Assembly (NCBI GenBank): GCA_016839815.1
Contig: JAEOTM010000131.1
Location: 1 to 36,795 of the forward strand
DNA: 36,795 bases
Origin: Candidatus Hodarchaeota archaeon
GTDB lineage: Archaea; Asgardarchaeota; Heimdallarchaeia; Hodarchaeales; Hodarchaeaceae
Reading direction: 5' to 3'
Below the pieces are notes generated by a model. That model worked only from the letters and a program-made list of their open reading frames with translations, did not search any database and was not told the DNA's origin. Both the position numbers and the translations under genes were made by a program. Numbering within the stretch: the stretch's first letter is position 1; each line of letters begins with the position of its first letter. Of the stretch, positions 8,730 through 36,707 are shown in pieces.

Positions 8730-9590
8730 TTACCTATTCTTAAGGAATGTCCCATTCCGATATTCATCAAAGGAGATTCGCAGTTCTTCTTGAGTATTCA
8801 TAAAAATAGGACCAGCCCATGCAATAGGTTCGTCGATAGGCTTTCCAGAAATTAAAAGAAAACGAACTCCTTCATCACCACTAGTGTTAACTTGTATCGT
8901 ATTTCCATTTCGTCTGTAGATTACTAGATTGTCTTTATCAATGAAGACACGGCTATTTGGTGCGAATCGCCCTTTTCCCTCGAAAATATACGCGAATACA
9001 GTGTGGCCATCTGATACAGTATGTGTAAATGTAACACCTGAGGGAATCTCGACATCAAGGTATTGAGGTTCAGCAATGATATCCTTAACTGGACCTTCAG
9101 TACCACGATATTTCCCAGCAAGGACACGTACAATTATACCGTCATCATGGGTAATTTCAGGCACTTGAGAAGCAACAATATCTTGATATCTAGGATTAAT
9201 CAGTTTAGAAGCTCTTGGAAGGTTTACCCACAATTGAAAACCAGCTAATTTTCCATCTGATACCTGAGGCATCTCTTGATGGACAATTCCTCCTCCAGCG
9301 GTCATCCATTGAATATCACCCTTGCCTAGAATGCCAGAGTTACCGATACTATCTTCATGTTTAACCAACCCCTCTAACATATAAGTAACAGTTTCTATTC
9401 CTCGATGAGGATGCCAAGGGAAACCTGCAATATAATCCTCAGGATTCTCAGAACCAAAAGCATCGAGTAATAAGAATGGATCAAGCAATTTAGTTTCTTG
9501 ATGACTAAAAACTCGTCTTAGTTTTACCCCTGCTCCATCCATTGTCGGGAAACTAGCTTGAGATCTATCAATTGTTCGAATAATACTCAT
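8730..9590 (-). CDS. Pirin family protein
   Basis: DPFLLLD, GFPWHPHRGIETVTY, HEDS, QWMTAGGGIVHQE, QLWVNLP, GPIFMNT. Confidence 0.96.
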   Translation of the reverse strand: MSIIRTIDRSQASFPTMDGAGVKLRRVFSHQETKLLDPFLLLDAFGSENPEDYIAGFPWHPHRGIETVTYMLEGLVKHEDSIGNSGILGKGDIQWMTAGGGIVHQEMPQVSDGKLAGFQLWVNLPRASKLINPRYQDIVASQVPEITHDDGIIVRVLAGKYRGTEGPVKDIIAEPQYLDVEIPSGVTFTHTVSDGHTVFAYIFEGKGRFAPNSRVFIDKDNLVIYRRNGNTIQVNTSGDEGVRFLLISGKPIDEPIAWAGPIFMNTQEELRISFDEYRNGTFLKNR

Positions 9591-16341: not shown

Positions 16342-17808
16342 ATGGGACAAGAATCACTCAATCCAGAACTAAATCAAGAACTTATTTCTGTGCTTGAAGC
16401 CATGATAGACCCAGTTCATATTATCAATAAAGAATTTAATATCATTTTCATGAATGAGGCATTTAAAAAGTGGAATGCTCATTTTGGATTTAAAACGGAA
16501 GTTATTGGTAAAAAATTGACAGATATTTTCCCCTTCCTGTCAGACCGCCCTTTAGCTGAATATGAGTATATCTTTGAGACTGGAAAGGCAATGGCTATTG
16601 CTGAAAGAACAGGCCATAGACGAGAAGAATTCTATAACATTCAACGAATTCCTATATTCAATAAAAACTCTCCTCAAGTGACTCACATAGTAACAATTAT
16701 TCGTGATGTAACAAAAAATGTAGCTATTACGGAAGCTCTAAAAGAATCGGAAAGAAAGTATCGATCGTTAATACAAACCATGGGAGAAGGAGTATGGGTC
16801 ACTGATCGCCTAGATAGAACCATTTTAGTGAATTCAACACTATTAAAAATGTTAGATTATACAGAGGGAGAGATGTTAGGAAGAAAAGTCACGGAATTCT
16901 TAACCCCTGAATATATTGATTTATTTAACGAAATACGGGAAAAACGAATGTCGGAGGAAATTCCAGCATCCACTTATGAACTTGATTTTCTAACAAAGAA
17001 TGGGTTAACAATTCATACACGAGTCGCTGGAACAGCACTCTATAACGAGGAAAATGAATTAATAGGATCGTTTGGAGTTATTTCTGATATTTCTGCAGAA
17101 AAGAAATATCAACAACTGCAGGAACGATTTATTGGAGTGACAGCCCATGAGTTAAGAACTCCTTTAGCGATCATCTCTGGGTACTTGGAACTTCTTCAGA
17201 AAGATCCTTCGATCACTCAGGAACATCAAAATATCTATAATGCAATGTTTAAAAATGCACTTCGGTTACATCAACTTGTACAATCAGTACACGACCTTAC
17301 TGCCATCCAAGCAAATGTTTTTACTATTAATCCTACTAGAACAAACTTAAATGACTTTGTTTCTCAATTTAAAATGCAAATCAAAATCCTTTTTCCGAAT
17401 AGGTTGATTCTAATAAATGAAGAAATTCATTCCCCTCAACTTGAGCTTATGATTGATACCAATCGAATAAACCAAGTATTAGAAAATCTCGTTGATAATG
17501 CAGCAAAAAATTCTCGACAGGACAAAATCATTACAATTAATTTCAGTTATTCTGACAATTCTCTTAATCTAACAGTGGAGGATGAGGGTACAGGAATCTC
17601 TAATCAGAAATTATTCCAACTGTTCCAACCATTCTCACATATTCCGACCGAATTTTCTCAACGAGGGACAGGATTAGGTTTATATATAATAAAGTCTATT
17701 ATTTCTGCACATAATGGTAAAATGAGTGTCATAACTCAAGAAAATAAAGGAAGTTGCTTTTCTGTTACCATTCCTAGTTTTCTCGAAATTTTTCCAAAAT
17801 CTTTCTAG
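16342..17808 (+). CDS. Soluble PAS-PAS sensor histidine kinase
   Basis: Two PAS/PAC repeats; H-box AHELRTPL; N-box NLVDNAAKNS; G1 DEGTG; G2 GTGLGL. Confidence 0.94.
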   Translation: MGQESLNPELNQELISVLEAMIDPVHIINKEFNIIFMNEAFKKWNAHFGFKTEVIGKKLTDIFPFLSDRPLAEYEYIFETGKAMAIAERTGHRREEFYNIQRIPIFNKNSPQVTHIVTIIRDVTKNVAITEALKESERKYRSLIQTMGEGVWVTDRLDRTILVNSTLLKMLDYTEGEMLGRKVTEFLTPEYIDLFNEIREKRMSEEIPASTYELDFLTKNGLTIHTRVAGTALYNEENELIGSFGVISDISAEKKYQQLQERFIGVTAHELRTPLAIISGYLELLQKDPSITQEHQNIYNAMFKNALRLHQLVQSVHDLTAIQANVFTINPTRTNLNDFVSQFKMQIKILFPNRLILINEEIHSPQLELMIDTNRINQVLENLVDNAAKNSRQDKIITINFSYSDNSLNLTVEDEGTGISNQKLFQLFQPFSHIPTEFSQRGTGLGLYIIKSIISAHNGKMSVITQENKGSCFSVTIPSFLEIFPKSF

Positions 17809-18848: not shown

Positions 18849-19427
18849 ATGAGTGAAAACGCAGAATATGAATACTGCAGATTATGTGGATATGTAAGAC
18901 GAGTGGGAAAAGGAGGAATTTGTCCTGCCTGTGGAGCTCGAGAAAAAGCATTTTTACCTTATGAACACAAGGCCTCAGAACAAAGACGTATGTTTCTAAA
19001 ATTAGATGTTCATCCAGTGTCTGTACACTTCACAATATCTTATATCGCAGTAATTGCCTTGTTATATGTTATATCGATATTTTCATCTGAGCTAGTAGGA
19101 ATCTCAATAGAAGGTACACGTGATCTACAAATTATTTTCTTTCCCCTTCTTGTGATTGGAGGAGGTATTACGGGACTCATAGATGGAAAAGTTAGATTTA
19201 GAAAACTCACCACTCCTTATTTGCAACGTAAAATCATCTTAGGAAGTGTTTTGTTTGTAATCTCCGTTCTCATCTTTGTGGTCCATAATCTTGATCCCTC
19301 TGATGGATTAACTGGATTATTGGAAGGTATTTTGATCTTCTCGGCATTTGGAATCGCGAGTTACCTTGGTTGGATTGGTGCAGAAATGATATGTCCAATA
19401 GTTCCTGTTGGACGACCAAAAGCATGA
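18849..19427 (+). CDS. Rubredoxin-like domain fused to DUF2231-like 4-TM membrane domain
   Basis: CRLCGY...CPACGA..KAF (rubrerythrin-type rubredoxin); HPVSVHF, GGITGLID and LGWIGAEM membrane motifs. Confidence 0.8.
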   Translation: MSENAEYEYCRLCGYVRRVGKGGICPACGAREKAFLPYEHKASEQRRMFLKLDVHPVSVHFTISYIAVIALLYVISIFSSELVGISIEGTRDLQIIFFPLLVIGGGITGLIDGKVRFRKLTTPYLQRKIILGSVLFVISVLIFVVHNLDPSDGLTGLLEGILIFSAFGIASYLGWIGAEMICPIVPVGRPKA

Positions 19428-19665: not shown

Positions 19666-21189
19666 CTAGGCATTATTAGGTAATTTTATTGTAAAAATGC
19701 ATCCAGTATCTTCTTCTCCGCTAACAACTTCGATAGTACCTTCATGAGCCTGAACAATTACTTTAATGATATATAGCCCAAGACCAGTACCAGTTTGAGA
19801 ATATTCAGTTGGGATATGAGCGAATGGCTTGAATAATTGCAGCATACTGTCATTAGATATACCTGTTCCTTGATCCTGTACACAGATTGTTAATTCAGTA
19901 GGATGAAAGTTGATGCGAATATTGATGGGTGAGTCTTTTGGTGAATTTTTAACAGCGTTTTGTGCTAAATTTTCGACCGTTTGTTTGATCCTTTCACCAT
20001 CCATGTTAAAAGTCACATTAGAATCAATAAATACATTTGTATCCCAAAAAATGTTCCGTTTTGGAAACAGGATTGTGATCTGATCTTTTAATTCATTTAT
20101 AAACTCAAACAGGTTGATTTCTTCTCGATTGATAGTAAATAAATTTGCTCGAACAGAAGAGAGATCATGTACATTTCTAACCAGTCTAATAAGTCGATTA
20201 ACGTTTCGTGACATTTTTTCGACAATAACCAACAGATCTTCTTGAGATAGATCAGGACTAATTTGTAGAACATCAATATAACCACTTATAACCGTAAGAG
20301 GTGTCCTTAGCTCATGAGCTGTTGTAGCTATGAATCGTTCCTGTAATTTCTGAAGTGATTTTTCCTGAGTGATGTCGGATATTACACAAAAATTACCAAT
20401 TTTTTGACTGTTTGGATCTGTTAATGTTGAAAGAATTAACCTCGTATCTACTTCCACCCCTGATTTATTAAAAAATGTAATATCAATTGGATTTGATGTA
20501 GAATCGATGTCTAGAGAGTTTAATTCTTGTAAAAAGGCCTCCTGAAGCTTTGGACCAATAAAATCTGTGATAAGCTTTCCAATCATTTCAGTCTCTGTAT
20601 ATCTTAGCATTTTACTCAAAGCCTTATTTATGAAAACCGTCCTTAAGGAATTATCAAATAGCCAAACACCTTCACCCATCTGAGTAATTAATTTTCTGAA
20701 CCTGTCTTCACTCTCTCGGAGAGCTTTCATCATGCTTTCATACTTCGTCTCGATATAACGCATATTTTTTTCTGTTTTTGCTTCTGTAGACTGATATTTC
20801 AGTATTGTAGTTATTAGTTTTCTTTTATTAGTAATTATGGGTACCAGATTTACAGAATACGATGTAGGATCCATTGGAACAATCCATGAGCTAACAAGAA
20901 GTGTTTCTTGTGACTGGATTACTTCTTTATAGTCACTTATTCTCTCTTCACATAAGAATGGAAGCATGTCGCCAATATATTGATTTTTACGAGGTGAGGG
21001 TAGTCCCCAGCCGTGTAATAGACGTAAAAAAGTTTCGTTTGAAAATTGAAATTTTAAATGATTATCTACTATGAAAATTGGATCAGATATGAGCTTAAAA
21101 GATTGATAAAATTGATGAATAAATGTTTCATCAGTTTTACGTACATCTGCATTCGTAGTAACTGTTTTAGGCATTGCTTCCCAATCCAA
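19666..21189 (-). CDS. Soluble PAS-PAS sensor histidine kinase (paralogue of 16342..17808)
   Basis: AHELRTPL, NLAQNAVKNS, DQGTG, GTGLGL; two PAS-like repeats. Confidence 0.93.
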   Translation of the reverse strand: MDWEAMPKTVTTNADVRKTDETFIHQFYQSFKLISDPIFIVDNHLKFQFSNETFLRLLHGWGLPSPRKNQYIGDMLPFLCEERISDYKEVIQSQETLLVSSWIVPMDPTSYSVNLVPIITNKRKLITTILKYQSTEAKTEKNMRYIETKYESMMKALRESEDRFRKLITQMGEGVWLFDNSLRTVFINKALSKMLRYTETEMIGKLITDFIGPKLQEAFLQELNSLDIDSTSNPIDITFFNKSGVEVDTRLILSTLTDPNSQKIGNFCVISDITQEKSLQKLQERFIATTAHELRTPLTVISGYIDVLQISPDLSQEDLLVIVEKMSRNVNRLIRLVRNVHDLSSVRANLFTINREEINLFEFINELKDQITILFPKRNIFWDTNVFIDSNVTFNMDGERIKQTVENLAQNAVKNSPKDSPINIRINFHPTELTICVQDQGTGISNDSMLQLFKPFAHIPTEYSQTGTGLGLYIIKVIVQAHEGTIEVVSGEEDTGCIFTIKLPNNA

Positions 21190-29606: not shown

Positions 29607-30092
29607 ATGGAGTATGTGACGATTGGGAACTTAGAAATACAATTTATTCCGTTACTTGTAATGCTATTTGAAACAATTTTGATTAGTTCACTTGTAATTG
29701 GATGGTATTTTGGAGCAAGACGATTAAATATTGATTTACATCATTGGATGGTGTATGGGGCTACTCCTGTACATGCGATCATCTGGTTCCTTTGGATGCT
29801 TCCTGCGGTGCTACGGTCTTTACCTAGAGCCCTTCAAGATCCAATTCCTAGAATTTTTCCTCTTCTCCACTGGACTTCTGGACTGATTGCTCTTATTCTC
29901 AGTATTTCTATTACTATTACCTTTCTTCTCAATAAAGATATCCCATTAGGTTTATTACGGAGGATAAGACCGTTTATGATTGTTACCATCATCTGTTGGA
30001 CAATAGCCTTTGTTTTAGGTATCTACATCTTCTTAAATTTTAAAATTGATACTGTTTCCGAATACTCCTCTTCTATCTGGGAGTTTCTGTAA
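29607..30092 (+). CDS. DUF420-like 4-TM protein (putative oxidase assembly factor)
   Basis: Four TM; GWYF.ARR...LHHWMV and LLHWTSG His motifs; located upstream of cox genes. Confidence 0.6.
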   Translation: MEYVTIGNLEIQFIPLLVMLFETILISSLVIGWYFGARRLNIDLHHWMVYGATPVHAIIWFLWMLPAVLRSLPRALQDPIPRIFPLLHWTSGLIALILSISITITFLLNKDIPLGLLRRIRPFMIVTIICWTIAFVLGIYIFLNFKIDTVSEYSSSIWEFL

Positions 30093-30117: not shown

Positions 30118-30244
30118 GGTGAATTCAAAATATTCGATTTTCACAAACGATTCTTAATAATCTTTGACAATTTTTTCTTCCTCTGCACCAAAAAATTTGT
30201 CTCTGAAGGAGATCTCAACGTTGAATAGAAGGCTTGATAACAAA

Positions 30245-30994
30245 ATGCGAATAATTGCCAAGAGTAAACAGATTTTAGCTTTTATGGTGTTTATACTAAT
30301 ACTCTCATTTACAGTTAATTCTTTAGTTGCGAAACAACAATTTACTACAGAAAATATTCTGGATGGTATTATTACACCAGGAGAGTACTCTAACTCACAG
30401 AATATAGATGAAGGTAAGTTTATTCTATATTGGAAAGCAACAAGCCAAAATTCGATAATATTCGCAATGGAAGTCAAAACGACGGGCTGGATAGCGATTG
30501 GAATCGATCCTATTTACAGAATGAAAGACGCTGACATGTACTTTGGTTGGGTAAGTACGAATGGCAGTGTGCATATGATTGATGCCTTTAGTACCGATGA
30601 TTACGGACCACATCCTCCAGATACTGAATTAGGTGGAACTAACAATATAATCGCCTTTGATGGTACAGAAAGTGATCAAACAACCATTGTCGAATTTGAA
30701 CGAGGGATTGTTACCAATGATACTAAATATGATAACCCTATTCCACTTACGGGAGAAATTATCATTCTCTGGGCATATGGGACTTCTGACGATTTCGAGG
30801 CTCAGCATGCGATCATTAATCGTGGAACAATACATTGGAGTCTAAAGGGTGCGAGTATTCTGAGATATGATTTTAGTCAACCTTTCATTTTAGGCCTAGC
30901 TTTTTTTATAACCTTATCTGGGTTATTAATCTATGTAGATAGTCTGGGACGACCGTCTAAGAAAGAAAATGGTAATAAAAACGGTGAACAATAA
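30245..30994 (+). CDS. Exported, membrane-anchored DOMON-domain protein (putative heme b)
   Basis: Signal peptide; GWIAIGI..YRMKDADMYFGW (Met ligand position); IILWAYG..QH...RG (His ligand position); C-terminal TM. Start may instead be TTG 30221. Confidence 0.85.
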   Translation: MRIIAKSKQILAFMVFILILSFTVNSLVAKQQFTTENILDGIITPGEYSNSQNIDEGKFILYWKATSQNSIIFAMEVKTTGWIAIGIDPIYRMKDADMYFGWVSTNGSVHMIDAFSTDDYGPHPPDTELGGTNNIIAFDGTESDQTTIVEFERGIVTNDTKYDNPIPLTGEIIILWAYGTSDDFEAQHAIINRGTIHWSLKGASILRYDFSQPFILGLAFFITLSGLLIYVDSLGRPSKKENGNKNGEQ

Positions 30995-32436
30995 TGGCTG
31001 AGTTACATCCAATAGTTTTACACTTTCATATTGCGAACTTGGCTTTAAGCATCTTTACATTTCTTATTGCAATGATAGTTACAATTTTTGAAAAAACTGA
31101 CTTTTTTAACCGAAAGAGAGTGAAAAGAGCTTTTCGTGGCAGAGAGTTAATGAATCAGTCTACGTGCCGTACTTATGCTGATAAATTCGAGTTTGTCGCA
31201 TTTATGTTTCTAATTTATGGCGCTGTGACCTTAGTGGTTGCAGGAATAGCAGGCTTTTTGGATGCGTCTGGAAATATTGGAATTGGGAACATATCTATAG
31301 ATAACTTGGTAGCTGGGGTAACTGCGGCAGGTTTAAGTTCAGTTTTAGGATATAAGGTTATATATGCAATAATTGGCACATCTTACTTCCTTTTTGCGAT
31401 CGTGATTCGAATTTATTTTGTTAGTTATAGAAAAGAACGCTTCTTCAATCAACACTACTTGTATTGGATCATTTTCTTTATCAGCCAAGTATTAGGATAT
31501 CTTCTTCTAACCTTGGTTTCAGGGGCTGGAGCAATCCGTGTTTATGGTGGAACTTTGATATCAGATTTACCAATTTTCGGGGATATGCTCCCTGGTGGTT
31601 CACTTGATCCAACTCCTCTAATCTTAGTAGGGTCACTTCTAATTGTCTTTTTAGTTATTTTTGCAGGTTTTTCTCGAAAACCACCTCAAATAGAACCACC
31701 TGAAGAGGATTCACATGAAGAACATGAAGTAACCCTTTGGCCTGCGGCATTGGCGTTTGGAACTGTGTTTGTTGCAGCTGCTCTCATTAATTTTACTGAT
31801 GGAAATGAATTAGCTGCTTTTGGATTCTTTTGGACATTTTTTGTTGTATTACTTGCCTTCATATTCAATGAAGCTTATACTCAGAAGCTTTTCAAAAGAC
31901 CCCGTGAAGGATGGGTGTGGTTATTCCTTGGAAGTGAGGTAATTTTATTTTCAATGATTATTGGGACCTCTTTTGGGTTAAGACTTTCCGCAGCAGATTG
32001 GCCTGTTCAGAGTCAAACCCTAGATATTCCTTTAACGGCACTTAATACGTTTATCCTCATTATTAGTAGCTTTACAATGGTTAAATCTGTAGATGCGATA
32101 CAACAAGGCAAACAGAAGGTAGCTCGTAATTTTCTGCTAGCCACTGCTGGATTAGGTACTCTCTTCCTTAGTATTCAGGTTACTGAATATCTAAAGCTAT
32201 TTTCTCATCATTTTACTCCTGATTCAGGATTATTTGGATCTACGTTTTATATTCAGACAGGACTACACGGTGCTCATGTGTTCTTTGGTGTGCTTCTAGT
32301 TGTTTTTACAACCTTACGTACTCATCAGGGAGGATTTACACCGGAGAATCACGCTGGTTTGGAATTAGTTGGATTATATTGGCATTTTGTTGACTTAGTG
32401 TGGATAGTTTTATTTACGCTTGTCTATTTAATATAG
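30994..32436 (+). CDS. ctaE: Cytochrome c oxidase subunit III fused to an N-terminal DUF2231-like membrane domain
   Basis: C-terminal half: LWP, WLFLGSEVILF, NTFILIISS, QVTEY, TGLHGAHV, GLYWHFVDLVW. N-terminal about 230 aa extra, starting LHPIVLHFH. Confidence 0.9.
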   Translation: MAELHPIVLHFHIANLALSIFTFLIAMIVTIFEKTDFFNRKRVKRAFRGRELMNQSTCRTYADKFEFVAFMFLIYGAVTLVVAGIAGFLDASGNIGIGNISIDNLVAGVTAAGLSSVLGYKVIYAIIGTSYFLFAIVIRIYFVSYRKERFFNQHYLYWIIFFISQVLGYLLLTLVSGAGAIRVYGGTLISDLPIFGDMLPGGSLDPTPLILVGSLLIVFLVIFAGFSRKPPQIEPPEEDSHEEHEVTLWPAALAFGTVFVAAALINFTDGNELAAFGFFWTFFVVLLAFIFNEAYTQKLFKRPREGWVWLFLGSEVILFSMIIGTSFGLRLSAADWPVQSQTLDIPLTALNTFILIISSFTMVKSVDAIQQGKQKVARNFLLATAGLGTLFLSIQVTEYLKLFSHHFTPDSGLFGSTFYIQTGLHGAHVFFGVLLVVFTTLRTHQGGFTPENHAGLELVGLYWHFVDLVWIVLFTLVYLI

Positions 32437-32463
32437 GTTGAATTTGAATGGGTGATAGATTAA

Positions 32464-33114
32464 ATGAAAATGAAAAATATAACTATTTTGGGTAGTATAT
32501 TATTAGGGTTATTCTTAGCGAGGCCTATAATCTCCGCTAGAGCTTCTACGACTGATTCCACCTATACCCCACAGATAGAGTTCTTGTTGACACTAATGAT
32601 TTTAGTATCAATTCTAATTGCTGCAATTGTGTTTGGGATGTTAATCTATATTGTAGTTCGTTTCAGAGAAGGGAACAATACGGTACGTAAAAAGATCCAA
32701 AATGAGATGCGTTTAGAAATTGGATGGGTTATTTTTGCTACAGTCATAGTCATATCATTATTCGCCGCTAGCTTACCAGCCACTACTTCGTACTTCTCAG
32801 AGCGAAAGGACTATGATGAGGAAATCCTGATCGTCGCTTACCAATATAATTTTACTTTTGTTCGGGAAGATAATTCATTTACCGTAGGTTATGTGGAGAT
32901 TGAGGTACATAAGGTGTACATGCTTAACATTACCTCAACGGATGTTATTCATTCATTTTACTCTCATGAGCTAAGTATTAAGCTTGATATGGTTCCAGGT
33001 AGGTATAATATTATCTACTTACAAGTACGCACTCCAGGTACTTATGAAGTTCATTGTGCGGAATATTGTGGATTCGGCCATTATTCTATGGAAGCAAAAA
33101 TCATAGTAACATAA
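32464..33114 (+). CDS. ctaC: Cytochrome c oxidase subunit II (CuA)
   Basis: Signal-like segment plus two TM with LEIGW; DVIHSF; CAEYCGFGHYSM CuA motif; no C-terminal CxxCH domain. Confidence 0.96.
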   Translation: MKMKNITILGSILLGLFLARPIISARASTTDSTYTPQIEFLLTLMILVSILIAAIVFGMLIYIVVRFREGNNTVRKKIQNEMRLEIGWVIFATVIVISLFAASLPATTSYFSERKDYDEEILIVAYQYNFTFVREDNSFTVGYVEIEVHKVYMLNITSTDVIHSFYSHELSIKLDMVPGRYNIIYLQVRTPGTYEVHCAEYCGFGHYSMEAKIIVT

Positions 33115-33115
33115 G

Positions 33116-34648
33116 GTGATAAAAATTACAGATAGTAAACATCCTCCCTTTTATAAAAATTGGAAAACATTGATTGGGACAACTAATCATGAAGAAATTG
33201 GTCTTCTCTACATTATTCTAGCCATCATTAGTGTGTTTATTGGTGGGACTCTTGCAATGGTCATGAGGACTGAATTAGCCTTTCCTGGGCCAACACTAGT
33301 AACTGATGAATTATATGCTGTTATATTCACTGCTCATGGTACAATTATGATTTTCTTAGTGATTTTTCCTTTAGGTGCGGGATTTGGGAATTATCTTGTC
33401 CCCAAATTAATAGGGGCACCCGATATGTATTGGCCAAGATGGAATAACGCTGCCTTATGGTTATTAATACCTGCGGGAGGATTAATTTTCTTTGCTCAAG
33501 CCTCAGTTGGTTGGACTGCTTATACACCCCAAAGTGCAATTTTCGAAGGAGTAAGTGTAGATATGTGGATTATCGGTGTGTTACTTGCTGGAGTTTCATC
33601 ATTAGTATCTGCAATTAACTTTCTAATGACAATTGCGACTATGCGTGGACCAGAATTAACATGGGGAAAGTTAGACTTGTTTAGTTGGTCTATTTTAGCC
33701 ACATCAATCATACAACTATGTGCAACCCCTTTAATTACTACAGGTCTAGCAATGTTACTCTCTGACAGAATTATTGAAACAACTTTCTTCTCAGTATCCG
33801 CTTATGGTGTGGATTCCTTTCTATGGCAACATATTTTCTGGTCATATTCTCACCCCGCTGTATACATTATGATTCTCCCAGCCATGGGATTAACATCAAT
33901 GATGGTGCAAAAGTTTTCACGTAATGAAATCTTTGGTTATAAATCCATGGTAGTATCCATGATGGTTATTACCTTCCTTGGATTCCTTGTGTGGGGGCAC
34001 CACCAATACACTCTGTATGGTGCAGCGACTGATGCTCTCACTACCACGATTTTTTCTATTATCACTTCACTTATTGCAGTTCCCTCTGGAATTAAAACAT
34101 TTAATTGGTTACTAACAATGTGGGGTGGCAGAATTAAACTGGAGGTTCCGATAGTCTTTCCATTTGGCTTTATTATCGGTTTTGTTATTGGAGGGGTGAC
34201 TGGAGTTTGGTTAAACATTGTTCCTCTTGATATTGTTGCCCATGATACTGCGTTTGTAGTTGGTCATTTTCATATGATTATCCTTGGTGGAGCTCTTACT
34301 GCACTTATTGGCGCGTTTTATAACTTTTTCCCAGAATTTACTGGAAAAATGTACCATCGCAACCTAGCATGGGCTCATTGTTTCATGTGGGTCATTGGAT
34401 TTTTAACTACGTTTGGATCTATGATGATAATCGGAATACATGGAATGCCACGAAGGTTTTATGATTACTCAAATTTTGGAAATGTAGATTTCTTAGCCTT
34501 TTGGAATTTAATAGCAACATTGGGTGCTTATTTAATGTTCACTTCTGGAATCGTATTCGTCATTAACATGATTTACAGTTTGAGAAGGGGCCCTCCTGCA
34601 GGTCCTGATCCCTTCAATCTGAATATTGATGAACTCCCTACTATGTAA
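33116..34648 (+). CDS. ctaD: Heme-copper oxygen reductase subunit I, type A2
   Basis: AHGTIMIF; D-channel PDMYWPRWNN; YSHPAVY; VWGHH; K-channel PSGIK; GHFH; MPRR. Confidence 0.97.
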   Translation: MIKITDSKHPPFYKNWKTLIGTTNHEEIGLLYIILAIISVFIGGTLAMVMRTELAFPGPTLVTDELYAVIFTAHGTIMIFLVIFPLGAGFGNYLVPKLIGAPDMYWPRWNNAALWLLIPAGGLIFFAQASVGWTAYTPQSAIFEGVSVDMWIIGVLLAGVSSLVSAINFLMTIATMRGPELTWGKLDLFSWSILATSIIQLCATPLITTGLAMLLSDRIIETTFFSVSAYGVDSFLWQHIFWSYSHPAVYIMILPAMGLTSMMVQKFSRNEIFGYKSMVVSMMVITFLGFLVWGHHQYTLYGAATDALTTTIFSIITSLIAVPSGIKTFNWLLTMWGGRIKLEVPIVFPFGFIIGFVIGGVTGVWLNIVPLDIVAHDTAFVVGHFHMIILGGALTALIGAFYNFFPEFTGKMYHRNLAWAHCFMWVIGFLTTFGSMMIIGIHGMPRRFYDYSNFGNVDFLAFWNLIATLGAYLMFTSGIVFVINMIYSLRRGPPAGPDPFNLNIDELPTM

Positions 34649-34668
34649 TTGAAGAAATTAAGTTAAAG

Positions 34669-35019
34669 ATGATAAGTATGGCAACACAGGTAGAATCTAA
34701 TAACGCGCATGAATATGTAAAACGTCCCTATTTCCTTGTTTTTCTTATGTTGGGATTACTAACGGTCTTAGAATTGAATGTTGGTTTTATGGCGAAAATT
34801 GTGGGAGAAGGCACTGATATTGAGGGATTTATTGATCTAGCATTAATTGTACTTGCGCTTCTTAAAGCATACTTAGTTGCTGCCTTTTTTATGGGGATAA
34901 AATATCAAGATAATCCTAAAACAGTATATGGAATAATGTTCGGGATTCCTATGTTCATTGCATTACCTGTAGTTGTTATCCCAGCTCTTGGTACAATTGT
35001 CTATTTGTGTGGAATATAA
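34669..35019 (+). CDS. ctaF: Cytochrome c oxidase subunit IV (prokaryotic caa3-type)
   Basis: Three TM; YFLVFLML..LTVLE; LALLKAYLVAAFFM. Confidence 0.8.
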   Translation: MISMATQVESNNAHEYVKRPYFLVFLMLGLLTVLELNVGFMAKIVGEGTDIEGFIDLALIVLALLKAYLVAAFFMGIKYQDNPKTVYGIMFGIPMFIALPVVVIPALGTIVYLCGI

Positions 35020-35046
35020 TATTGAGGTAAAAGGAGTTATTATCGC

Positions 35047-35715
35047 ATGGAACAAAGTACTATTGTTGGAACACTCATTGGCGTTATGATTCTAGCCGGA
35101 ATCGGGTCTGCATTCATTCTCTATCCGCTAAGTCAAAACCAAATGCTGCCAGTTATTAAACCAGCTCCCGATTTTACCTTAATAAATCAAGAAAATGAAA
35201 CGGTGAGCTTACAGCACTTTTCAGGAAAGGTATTAATGCTTGGATTCCTTTACACTAATTGTGAGGATGATTTGTGTTCATTAATGACTTACGATTTTAA
35301 AACAATTCAAACTGTACTAGCTCCCTCCTTGGGTAAAGATGCTATGCTTCTCTGCATTACTTTAGATCCATTATTTGATACCCCTTCAGTATTGAAGAAT
35401 TATGCTTTGTCTAATGGAGTCAATCTTTCTGGTTGGCAATTTCTTACAGCATATGATCTAGAGACCATTCAGAGAGTTGTCGATGATTACGGTGTATTAT
35501 CATACGCAAATGAACTAGATAAATTTGTAAATGTCACTAATGATAATACATCTTTCAATCTAAAAGTCTCTCATGGAAACGATTCTCAACCCAGTATTCT
35601 CATCCATTCCTGGGTTAGTATACTGATTGATCAAAACCTTATGATTCGTAAGGTCTATACTCGCGTCAGCTGGGTTGTTGGTGCTGCGATTGATGACATG
35701 AAGAGTTTACTTTAG
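35047..35715 (+). CDS. SCO1/SenC-family copper chaperone
   Basis: N-terminal TM; APDFTLINQ; FLYTNCEDDLC; ITLDP..DTP; WQFLT; IHS. Confidence 0.92.
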   Translation: MEQSTIVGTLIGVMILAGIGSAFILYPLSQNQMLPVIKPAPDFTLINQENETVSLQHFSGKVLMLGFLYTNCEDDLCSLMTYDFKTIQTVLAPSLGKDAMLLCITLDPLFDTPSVLKNYALSNGVNLSGWQFLTAYDLETIQRVVDDYGVLSYANELDKFVNVTNDNTSFNLKVSHGNDSQPSILIHSWVSILIDQNLMIRKVYTRVSWVVGAAIDDMKSLL

Positions 35716-35729
35716 AAATCTGTCGCTTA

Positions 35730-36707
35730 TCAACGCTTTTTCCTTTGAAATATTGGAATCATGACTAAGAAAGTTAAGCTTAGTGAAATTATTGGAAACT
35801 CAAATCCTGGAGTATCTTTTCCTTCATTAAATGTTATAAGAAACGGTTTAGCTGATTCATTTCCTATGATTGGATCATCAAAAGCTGGTGAAAACAGATG
35901 AGTATCAACTGTCTTATTAAATGTTCCATATAATTTATTATCCCAGTGTAAATGTGCGAAGACTGCTAGTTCTGAAGGAAGAGTTCCTGCTTCTTTATTT
36001 ACAAGAACATACTCATTTATATCTATATAGAGATCATTGTTAATGCCCTGTTTTAGTGGAATATGCCGTCTACCTACCATTGCTCCTAATCCACTATCGT
36101 TAATATGGATCACTACCCATGCTGGTCCAGGAACAATGACCTTTTCTATGAAAACTTTGGCATTTGCAGTATCAACCTCTTGATCACTAACAATGATGGT
36201 TGTTGGATAAGTATCTGTGATGGTAAATTGTTCTTCAGCCTCGTTAGCGTTTTCATCTACAAGAATGAGGTCTGATCCCTCGGATTCGAACATCATGTTC
36301 ATATTTGTGTCATTGTAAAGCTTAGCAGTAAGTTGTGCAGTTCGGCCAATTGAAGATAAGTGAACTCGCACAAACGTTGTGTGGTTTACTCCTTCATCAG
36401 AGAGTGAGAGGATTTTCAGTGAGGCGTAAGTATGGTTATGGCTCATCCCAATTTCCTCCATAGTTGAACTATATCCAAGTAGATCACCTGATGAATTATA
36501 GATTGCTACAAAACCCATATGATGAACATTTACTCTAGCCATTACTTGATTGTCGACTATTGGTTGATCTTTTACAATGAAATCGAAACCAACATATGCT
36601 ATCTCACTTTCTGAAGTTGCTAGTGATGTAGAGATGTGAGTCGAAGGTAAAGTAGCTGTTATGAAAAGCATTATTGATAGAAACTTAATATGTCTCATAA
36701 TTACCAC
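35730..36707 (-). CDS. Surface protein with two DUF7282-like beta domains and PGF-CTERM/Heimdall-CTERM-type sorting signal
   Basis: Signal peptide; repeats FIVKDQ...GFVAIY...LLGYS and IIVSDQ...AWVVIH...MVGR; C-terminal TPGFE + hydrophobic helix + QRKKR. Start may be ATG 36698. Confidence 0.8.
   Translation of the reverse strand: MVIMRHIKFLSIMLFITATLPSTHISTSLATSESEIAYVGFDFIVKDQPIVDNQVMARVNVHHMGFVAIYNSSGDLLGYSSTMEEIGMSHNHTYASLKILSLSDEGVNHTTFVRVHLSSIGRTAQLTAKLYNDTNMNMMFESEGSDLILVDENANEAEEQFTITDTYPTTIIVSDQEVDTANAKVFIEKVIVPGPAWVVIHINDSGLGAMVGRRHIPLKQGINNDLYIDINEYVLVNKEAGTLPSELAVFAHLHWDNKLYGTFNKTVDTHLFSPAFDDPIIGNESAKPFLITFNEGKDTPGFEFPIISLSLTFLVMIPIFQRKKR

Follow-up and report, generated by a model that had tools for sequence, protein, structure and literature searches.

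The window analysed here is the entire 36.8-kb contig JAEOTM010000131.1 (36,795 nucleotides) of a metagenome-assembled genome of Candidatus Hodarchaeota archaeon (GCA_016839815.1), which comprises 4.24 Mb at 89.5% completeness and 7.8% contamination. On its forward strand, between positions 30245 and 35715, six intact open reading frames (ORFs) follow one another at close spacing, and each has a Pfam family match. Together they encode an A-type haem-copper oxidase preceded by a DOMON protein. Subunit III of this oxidase begins with a fused, DUF2231-like membrane domain, and the DOMON protein and the fused domain may form the site of electron entry into the oxidase. A preliminary description made from the DNA letters alone had outlined the operon as DOMON, coxIII fusion, coxII, coxI, coxIV and sco, and this anatomy is borne out, as all six frames are open and match the named families.

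The first gene (30245-30994) encodes a DOMON protein of 249 amino acids (aa) from its ATG (PF03351, E 5e-26). The last base of its stop codon TAA (30992-30994) doubles as the first base of the ATG of the second gene, and direct reading at 30992-30996 confirms the TAATG overlap reported earlier. The second gene (30994-32436) encodes a 480-aa subunit III (CoxIII) fusion, in which a DUF2231-like membrane domain (aa 1-240; 30994-31713) precedes a subunit III core with seven transmembrane helices (31726-32436; PF00510 on residues 250-479, E 1e-24). The following genes encode subunit II with a minimal CuA domain (32464-33114; PF00116 and PF02790), an A2-type subunit I (33116-34648; PF00115, E 1.5e-134), a subunit IV of the prokaryotic COX4 type (COX4_pro, 34669-35019; PF03626, E 4e-7), and a Sco1/SenC-type copper chaperone or thiol-disulfide protein of CuA assembly (35047-35715; PF02630, E 1e-18). 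The Sco protein matches PF02630 at 68.1 bits, and its Cys residues are spaced as CEDDLC, not as CxxxC.

The order DOMON-fusion-CoxII-CoxI-CoxIV(-Sco) recurs in four related genomes, G049 (the B3_Heim genome), G053, G048, and G062, and DOMON-fusion pairs are also present in G063, G067, and G055. Because the same order is found in the former and part of it in the latter, the arrangement is not a product of chance. The stop/start overlap recurs in relatives as well, CoxIV keeps its position in G049, G053, G048, G062, and G064, and Sco lies downstream of CoxIV also in G049, G053, and G048. The search for DOMON beside cox genes in other genomes, suggested at the outset, was thus successful, with the gene order kept in at least six congeneric genomes. 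On the B3_Heim contig NJBF01000076.1, the order DOMON-fusion-CoxII-CoxI-CoxIV-Sco is the same and the subunits are 66-85% identical. Full-length relatives of the fused subunit III (45-83% identity) fall into about 35 protein clusters, which carry the names Heimdallarchaeota B3_Heim, Hodarchaeales, or Hodarchaeota; judged by these relatives the host belongs to Hodarchaeales, in agreement with its earlier placement among the close archaeal relatives of eukaryotes.

Variants of the arrangement exist outside these operons. In family f5, one contig carries DOMON, an unfused DUF2231, a 533-aa ORF without a Pfam match, and then CoxII-CoxI. DOMON adjoins an unfused DUF2231 in G033:C57 (on the contig that also carries cox), in G034:C122, and, twice, in G069. 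The ENA scaffold REYS20-1 scaffold_37565 encodes CoxII (with CuA), CoxI, DOMON::CoxIII, and CoxIV; here DOMON is fused to CoxIII without a DUF2231-like domain, so that subunit III has acquired an N-terminal partner independently a second time. The 3.16-Mb single-contig genome G055 has DOMON-fusion-CoxII with a shortened subunit II, and a COX1 gene was not detected; this copy looks like a truncated, decayed, or rearranged one and not like counter-evidence. In both G062 (C1:40000-53000) and G055 (C1:592000-604000), the cytochrome bd oxidase genes cydA and cydB immediately precede DOMON and share its strand, which places the two terminal oxidases in one block. In G062, CoxIV is followed by a gene of the UbiA family (possible haem O synthase).

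The DOMON protein consists of a signal-like segment (aa 1-27), the DOMON domain (nt 30410-30781; 91.8 bits for PF03351 against a cut-off of 32.7), a short linker, one conserved transmembrane helix (nt 30869-30955), and a basic tail, a layout that fits the export and C-terminal anchoring proposed for it. A TTG at 30164 could serve as an alternative start; comparison with homologues points to the ATG region. In the numbering that begins at the ATG (30245), M93, H123, and H188 are invariant in 26 DOMON relatives, b561 fusions included. M93 (nt 30521-30523) and H188 (nt 30806-30808) are candidate haem ligands, so the Met and His noted at presumed haem-ligand positions are indeed kept, and their spacing resembles that of M90/H174 in HYP1. 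In this plant CYBDOM protein, Met90/His174 is the predicted haem-b site, and electrons are carried to Fe(III) and Cu(II) at the outer face (PMC10784544). Outside cox operons, the DOMON protein is most closely related to DOMON-cytochrome b561 fusions (38-43% identity), found in metagenomes and in genomes of Methanomassiliicoccales, Thermoplasmata, Spirochaetes, and Planctomycetota, which supports membership of the haem-b electron-transfer class of DOMON domains. On these sequence grounds, the DOMON protein probably binds haem b.

Sequence and profile searches of the DOMON protein against the PDB returned no solved structure usable for mapping the ligands. PF03188 (b561) is unmatched in both the DOMON protein and the subunit III fusion; with no b561 domain with four haem-ligating His predicted in the same polypeptide, the protein is not a CYBDOM protein in the strict sense. 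Among eight cox-linked orthologues, identity amounts to 73% in the transmembrane anchor, 59% in the DOMON domain, and 22% in the signal region. Because the anchor is more conserved than the domain that it holds, it probably makes a specific helix-helix contact and is not a passive anchor. The genome encodes a second DOMON protein (G000:C17:9773-10534; PF03351, E 4e-27, with a weak match to the cytochrome of cellobiose dehydrogenase), which is unlinked to cox and flanked by beta-lactamase-like and alpha-amylase-like genes.

The N-terminal domain of the subunit III fusion (hereafter N-domain) scores 14 bits when compared directly with PF09990 (E 0.054), below the cut-off of 26.4. The DUF2231 label given earlier is reached transitively, through unfused DOMON-neighbour proteins of other Heimdallarchaeia (188-200 aa), which score 39.5 and 34.7 bits for PF09990 and match the N-domain at E 1e-6 to 1e-8. 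In addition, one orthologue of the fusion (P0007) has a precomputed PF09990 match, and the DUF2231 family motifs HPxxxHF, GxxDA, and GGxxVYG are present in the N-domain. Across 25 family members, H5, F11, G87, K121, and G179 are conserved and H10 and D90 are near-invariant, while conserved His residues are found only at positions 5, 10, and 12. Because the domain has no second His set, its conserved His being confined to one membrane face, the idea that it acts by itself as a b561-like, two-haem transmembrane wire has to be abandoned. The close N-domain family is small, as a representative search retrieved only 14 relatives, and neither functional literature on DUF2231/PF09990 nor longer fused forms of a bona fide DUF2231 were found, the latter being weak evidence.

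The AlphaFold model of the N-domain is a four-helix bundle with a fifth transmembrane helix (predicted local distance difference test, pLDDT, 89.7; predicted template modelling score, pTM, 0.84). Loops 1 and 3 contain 10 Lys/Arg residues and loops 2 and 4 none. Because of these loop charges, and because CoxIII must start in the cytoplasm, the N-terminus is predicted to lie outside, with H5, H10, D90, and K121 at the outer face, on the side of DOMON and CuA. The unfused DOMON-linked forms have four helices and both termini outside, and in the fusion the fifth helix supplies the extra membrane crossing that brings the chain to the cytoplasmic start of subunit III; an acidic, His-rich linker joins the two parts. 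Fold searches were of a generic outcome. The best Foldseek match of the N-domain model in the PDB has an E of 0.39, and a VIA-wide search placed de novo four-helix bundles on top (Z 11.6). Matches to haem-binding four-helix membrane cytochromes (b561, b6, and CcsBA) scored lower and in the generic helical-bundle range, with 4o6y (Z 9.2, root-mean-square deviation 3.8, 141 aligned), 7r0w_I (Z 9.0), and 7s9z (Z 8.5). The whole fusion matched only CoxIII chains in Foldseek (e.g., 7q21_E, TMt 0.82). Elsewhere in the genome (G000:C205:6787-8649), a stand-alone 234-aa paralogue of the N-domain (28% identity) is encoded 33 nt after a 374-aa secreted protein; hhalign lends no support to the latter as a further DOMON (probability 0.3%).

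A complex prediction for the N-domain and DOMON, with haem riding along, lends weak support to their association, with a score of 0.44 against 0.01 for the best control; of 80 solved complexes, 58 attain the mark applied, as do 2 of 110 mismatched pairs. A passing score of 0.60 or lower was obtained for just 7 of the 80 solved complexes and for both mismatches that passed. These counts apply only roughly, as the prediction used alignments made for this analysis and a ligand. At least 68% of contacts are shared between its runs, with a partner pLDDT of 73 or more. Taken with the rest, we hold it likely that DOMON is a stable subunit held by the DUF2231-like domain.

The oxidase core was examined by aligning subunit I with E. 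coli CyoB (from NC_000913) and subunit II with its R. sphaeroides counterpart. Subunit I has the haem ligands H74, H384, and H386, the CuB ligands H246, H295, and H296, and the cross-linked Tyr (Y250); in the alignment, H74, H386, H384, H246, H295, H296, and Y250 correspond to CyoB H106, H421, H419, H284, H333, H334, and Y288. The D-channel residues N92, D103, and N110 and the K-channel residue K327 are kept. The helix VI Glu (E286) is replaced by A248, and Y244-S245 lie within a YSHPAV motif. A YS motif in place of the helix VI Glu is the signature of the A2 type, an assignment that reportedly goes back to the 2001 classification of Pereira and colleagues. With these ligands and channel residues, the predicted enzyme is an A-type (A2) haem-copper oxygen reductase.

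Subunit II has a complete set of CuA ligands (H163, C198, E200, C202, H206, and M209; nt 32950-33090), as claimed in the preliminary description. The electron-entry motif QWYW of cytochrome c oxidases reads QYNF, and the globular docking region is about 45 residues shorter than in R. sphaeroides. All four residues of the bo3 quinol (QH) site are replaced (R71I, D75L, H98L, and Q101V; here I42, L46, L66, and V69). Of the features of a cytochrome c oxidase sensu stricto, the predicted protein thus has CuA and lacks the QWYW docking motif and an identified cytochrome c or blue copper donor, and with its CuA ligands present and its QH-site residues replaced it does not fit the bo3 type of quinol oxidase either. 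Because CuA is kept, the QH site is replaced, and QWYW has become QYNF, the enzyme looks like a CuA-dependent A2 oxidase that resembles neither the classical cytochrome c oxidisers nor the bo3 type. CtaA (PF02628) was not found in the genome by a profile that a short archaeal CtaA may escape, and the haem may therefore be haem a or haem o.

A CuA centre needs a one-electron donor, and profile searches of this genome detected no Rieske protein, cytochrome b (PF00033), blue copper protein (PF00127), or cytochrome c (PF13442); a CxxCH scan of the genome gave no small class I cytochrome c candidate. In the genus (22 genomes, including some that are 96-99% complete), cytochrome b and blue copper proteins are likewise found in 0/22 by the same two families, and the Rieske ORFs come in two kinds only, an oxygenase-like one of about 337 aa and a ferredoxin-like one of 117 aa. 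These searches do detect their targets, since Rieske and blue copper proteins were found in other families of the class; in one of them, G043, a cupredoxin is encoded beside a CoxI-III fusion. The lack of Rieske and blue-copper proteins, which the preliminary description had stated for the cluster, therefore extends to this genome and, for bc-type Rieske proteins, cytochrome b, and blue copper proteins, to the genus. The existence of a quinone pool is implied, as NuoH and CydA are encoded in the genome.

We propose that electrons enter this oxidase through a dedicated two-part module in place of cytochrome c, a bc complex, or a blue copper protein. The first part would be a type-I membrane-anchored DOMON protein at the outer face, with one haem b held by Met93 and His188, and the second would be the divergent DUF2231 four-helix membrane domain with its fifth helix at the N-terminus of subunit III. 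Overlap of the two genes at the stop and start codons would couple the synthesis of DOMON to that of subunit III, and DOMON would dock on the DUF2231-like domain through its conserved transmembrane helix. Quinol may be oxidised at an outer-face site of the DUF2231-like domain (H5, H10, D90, and K121) that passes electrons to the DOMON haem, and from this haem b single electrons would travel to CuA, haem a/o, and haem a3/o3-CuB.

To this reading as a whole, in which a permanently bound haem-b subunit, DOMON, reduces CuA and is docked on and probably quinol-fed by the DUF2231-like domain, we give a probability of roughly 45%. Its parts differ in strength. Electron transfer from DOMON to CuA stands at even odds. 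That the DUF2231-like domain oxidises quinol is a more tentative suggestion and the weakest step of the chain; a quinol site near the DOMON haem is the simplest reading and fits the quinol activity reported for an orthologue. The route past complex III and cytochrome c that was sketched earlier is thus favoured by the absence of donors and the tight linkage, and its step from DOMON to CuA is one that we infer. No literature linking DOMON to CuA was found.

Several observations weigh against this proposal. This DOMON subfamily and DUF2231 proteins also occur in anaerobes without cox. The fold searches with the N-domain gave only generic four-helix-bundle matches, and the domain has neither a second His set nor a recognisable quinone motif. 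The genus has a second type of oxidase operon, seen in G060 (C94) and G061 (C17), which consists of CoxII (CuA intact), CoxI, a plain 277-aa CoxIII, and CoxIV and has neither DOMON nor DUF2231 beside it. The genome studied here, at 89.5% completeness, includes a heptahaem cytochrome c. In solved oxidases, subunit III lies away from the transmembrane helices of subunit II. Lastly, according to a recent preprint, B3_Heim cyoABCD (subunits 81-85% identical to those studied here), expressed in E. coli without DOMON, oxidised ubiquinol and did not oxidise cytochrome c (10.1101/2025.11.07.685452).

This last result is also the main argument for reading the core (subunits I-IV) as a quinol oxidase in its own right, in which case CuA would not depend on DOMON as its donor, and DOMON would serve as an accessory, as an alternative input, or for protection. 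Quinol use is known for CuA-bearing oxidases such as Aquifex ba3 (PMC8251803). We nevertheless consider this alternative unlikely, since all four bo3 quinol-site residues are replaced here and every CuA ligand is retained. Moreover, the assay used E. coli membranes with native bo3, and residual activity was seen in a CuB mutant (10.1101/2025.11.07.685452). The expressed B3_Heim CyoC presumably included the DUF2231-like domain, and the assay did not separate the contribution of the core from that of the domain.

Alternatively, DOMON and the DUF2231-like domain may form a biogenesis module, that is, a cupric/ferric reductase or haem-handling device at the outer face that works with Sco to load CuA, CuB, or haem. 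Sco sits in the operon, CYBDOM proteins reduce both Cu(II) and Fe(III) (PMC10784544), and DUF2231 members weakly match the haem-handling family PF01578, to which a structural match of the N-domain to CcsBA (Z 8.5, generic range) can be added. However, the PF01578 and CcsBA similarities are below significance, and DOMON is the first gene of the operon and is translationally coupled. Assembly factors are also rarely fused to a structural subunit, yet both DUF2231-like::CoxIII and DOMON::CoxIII exist. We regard a role in biogenesis as quite improbable.

A donor of CuA encoded elsewhere, be it a heptahaem cytochrome c, a cupredoxin that went unrecognised, or a bc-type complex within the 10% of the genome that is missing, appears slightly less probable still. 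The locus G000:C189:58359-65019 encodes a membrane-anchored heptahaem cytochrome c (seven CxxCH) and a GH76-like protein, followed by CcmF and CcmE. The label "cytochrome-c-free" used in the preliminary description is therefore wrong for the genome, and its statement that CxxCH is lacking is valid for the cluster only. CcmC-like and CcmF genes occur in 18 of the 22 congeners, some of them without cox, and contamination is thereby ruled out as the source of the cytochrome c genes. The incompleteness of the genome also leaves room for an external donor, and qcrABC is present in some Heimdallarchaeia according to Appler et al. (10.1101/2024.07.04.601786). Against such a donor, cytochrome b, bc-type Rieske, and blue copper proteins are missing from all 22 congeners, Ccm and multihaem genes are also found in cox-lacking congeners, and subunit II has QYNF for QWYW and a truncated docking region. 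In addition, the orthologue was reported to be inactive with cytochrome c (10.1101/2025.11.07.685452), and Imachi/Nobu independently found no donor (10.1101/2025.02.26.640444).

The window contains a second DUF2231 gene. A 192-aa protein encoded at 18849-19427 (+), possibly an accessory to the oxidase, consists of a rubredoxin-like part (CxxC...CxxC) fused to a DUF2231 membrane part, with weak RUBY_RBDX and DUF2231 matches; its relatives in family f4 coincide with PF09990 matches above the cut-off. Because of its charge distribution, its topology is predicted to be opposite to that of the CoxIII N-domain, with the N-terminus inside and the conserved His/Asp/Lys at the cytoplasmic face. In both DUF2231 forms the conserved site would thus face the attached redox domain, as expected for a membrane redox adaptor. 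The rubredoxin fusion adjoins the cox operon in G048, G062, and G064, and is 7-11 kb away from it in G053 and here. It is found in 16 of the 22 congeners, and because these include seven without cox its membership of the oxidase system is uncertain. PAS-domain histidine kinases, which may sense redox or oxygen, flank the gene at 16342-17808 (+) and 19666-21189 (-).

A wire for cytoplasmic electrons, in which the rubredoxin::DUF2231 protein with its inner-face site pairs antiparallel with the DUF2231-like domain of CoxIII to feed DOMON and CuA, would suit the opposite topologies, the placement of each conserved site on the side of its redox partner, and the neighbourhood of the two loci (beside cox in three genomes, on the same contig here and in G053), but it is the least likely of the alternatives and very improbable. 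The fusion also occurs in the seven cox-lacking congeners and, in G055, is distant from cox. When the N-domain family was compared with the rubredoxin fusions by hhalign, the alignment was confined to the His motif of 18 residues (HPxxxHF; probability 19.7%), and no cofactor is known for DUF2231.

The remainder of the window holds unrelated genes, including those for PAS histidine kinases, a pirin, and MFS (major facilitator superfamily) and ABC (ATP-binding cassette) transporters. Two neighbours were considered as parts of the operon and rejected. Directly upstream of DOMON, a 161-aa, four-helix transmembrane, His-rich ORF at 29607-30092 (+) matches no Pfam family and has no counterpart in the cox neighbourhoods of relatives. 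A gene at 35730-36707 (-), convergent with sco, encodes a secreted, C-terminally anchored DUF7282 protein and is shared only with the closest relative (G053). The pirin (bicupin) gene is located at 8730-9590 (-). Quercetin 2,3-dioxygenase is among the O2-dependent enzymes of Heimdallarchaeia listed by Appler et al. (10.1101/2024.07.04.601786).

Known systems offer partial parallels to the proposed module. The CYBDOM proteins (HYP1 and CRR of Arabidopsis) and AIR12 share with it an exported Met/His DOMON, a membrane partner, and a metal acceptor at the outer face. They differ in that the partner there is b561, whereas here it is a separate chain fused to CoxIII, and the proposed acceptor is CuA instead of free Fe(III)/Cu(II). 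The cytochrome domain of cellobiose dehydrogenase is a haem-b DOMON-like one-electron shuttle to the copper of lytic polysaccharide monooxygenase. It is alike in delivering electrons to the copper centre of another protein, but this soluble fungal protein receives its electrons from a flavin domain of its own and works without a membrane partner or an oxidase. Cellobiose dehydrogenase templates are cited in PMC10784544.

Among the oxidases, caa3 of T. thermophilus (2yev) and the SoxM supercomplex of Sulfolobus are comparable as A-type enzymes with a built-in donor, and subunit I/III fusions occur there. The donor in caa3 is a cytochrome c fused to subunit II, and in SoxM it consists of sulfocyanin, Rieske protein, and cytochrome b. 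Here, in contrast, the donor would be a haem-b DOMON tethered via subunit III, and neither a cytochrome c domain nor sulfocyanin, Rieske protein, or cytochrome b is present. E. coli cytochrome bo3 is likewise a four-subunit A-type enzyme, and the orthologue of the present oxidase was reported to oxidise quinol; the differences from bo3 are the retained CuA ligands, the four replaced QH-site residues, and the A2-type YSHPA in helix VI.

The operon is therefore of a known type, with a little-described module of electron entry that is real and conserved. The preliminary description knew of no account of this architecture, a view that is correct only in part. By Appler et al. (10.1101/2024.07.04.601786), DOMON neighbours of Complex IV operons of Hodarchaeales and Kariarchaeaceae are called "putatively electron-transferring", and the path drawn there runs from QcrABC through cytochrome c to Cox. 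Neither the CoxIII fusion nor the rubredoxin::DUF2231 gene was found described in the literature searched. The B3_Heim cyoABCD preprint makes no mention of DOMON or of the subunit III extension and treats the enzyme as a typical quinol oxidase (10.1101/2025.11.07.685452). In the passages of these two papers that were consulted, the DUF2231-like extension of 240 aa, DOMON::CoxIII, and the unfused DOMON-DUF2231 pairs do not appear, nor is the module proposed as a replacement link for complex III and cytochrome c.

More broadly, DUF2231 proteins may be an unrecognised family of membrane redox adaptors. On one side they would connect to the quinone pool or to a further copy of DUF2231, and on the other to a redox domain, which would be rubredoxin at the inner and haem-b DOMON at the outer membrane face. 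The Hodarchaeales DOMON and DUF2231::CoxIII, possibly fed by rubredoxin::DUF2231, would then be a route from quinol or a cytoplasmic reductant to O2 without complex III or cytochrome c. We put this wider scheme forward as a speculation with rather low odds. If it is true, Hodarchaeales could run a short proton-pumping aerobic chain that is now scored "incomplete" by annotation.

Whether Heimdallarchaeia and Hodarchaeales respire O2 is disputed. Appler et al. read Cox as aerobic respiration (10.1101/2024.07.04.601786). Imachi/Nobu, in their preprint on cultured Hodarchaeales, argue that Cox cannot be fed for want of complex III, cytochrome c, and blue copper carriers; they describe Cox-bearing Heimdallarchaeia without a discernible way to feed Cox and leave it possible that "uncharacterized proteins fill in the gaps" (10.1101/2025.02.26.640444). 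DOMON together with DUF2231-like::CoxIII, conserved and linked by gene fusion, offers a concrete candidate for the missing feed. If confirmed, it would represent a new kind of electron entry into haem-copper oxidases and the first function for DUF2231, and metabolic reconstructions that bear on eukaryogenesis would change.

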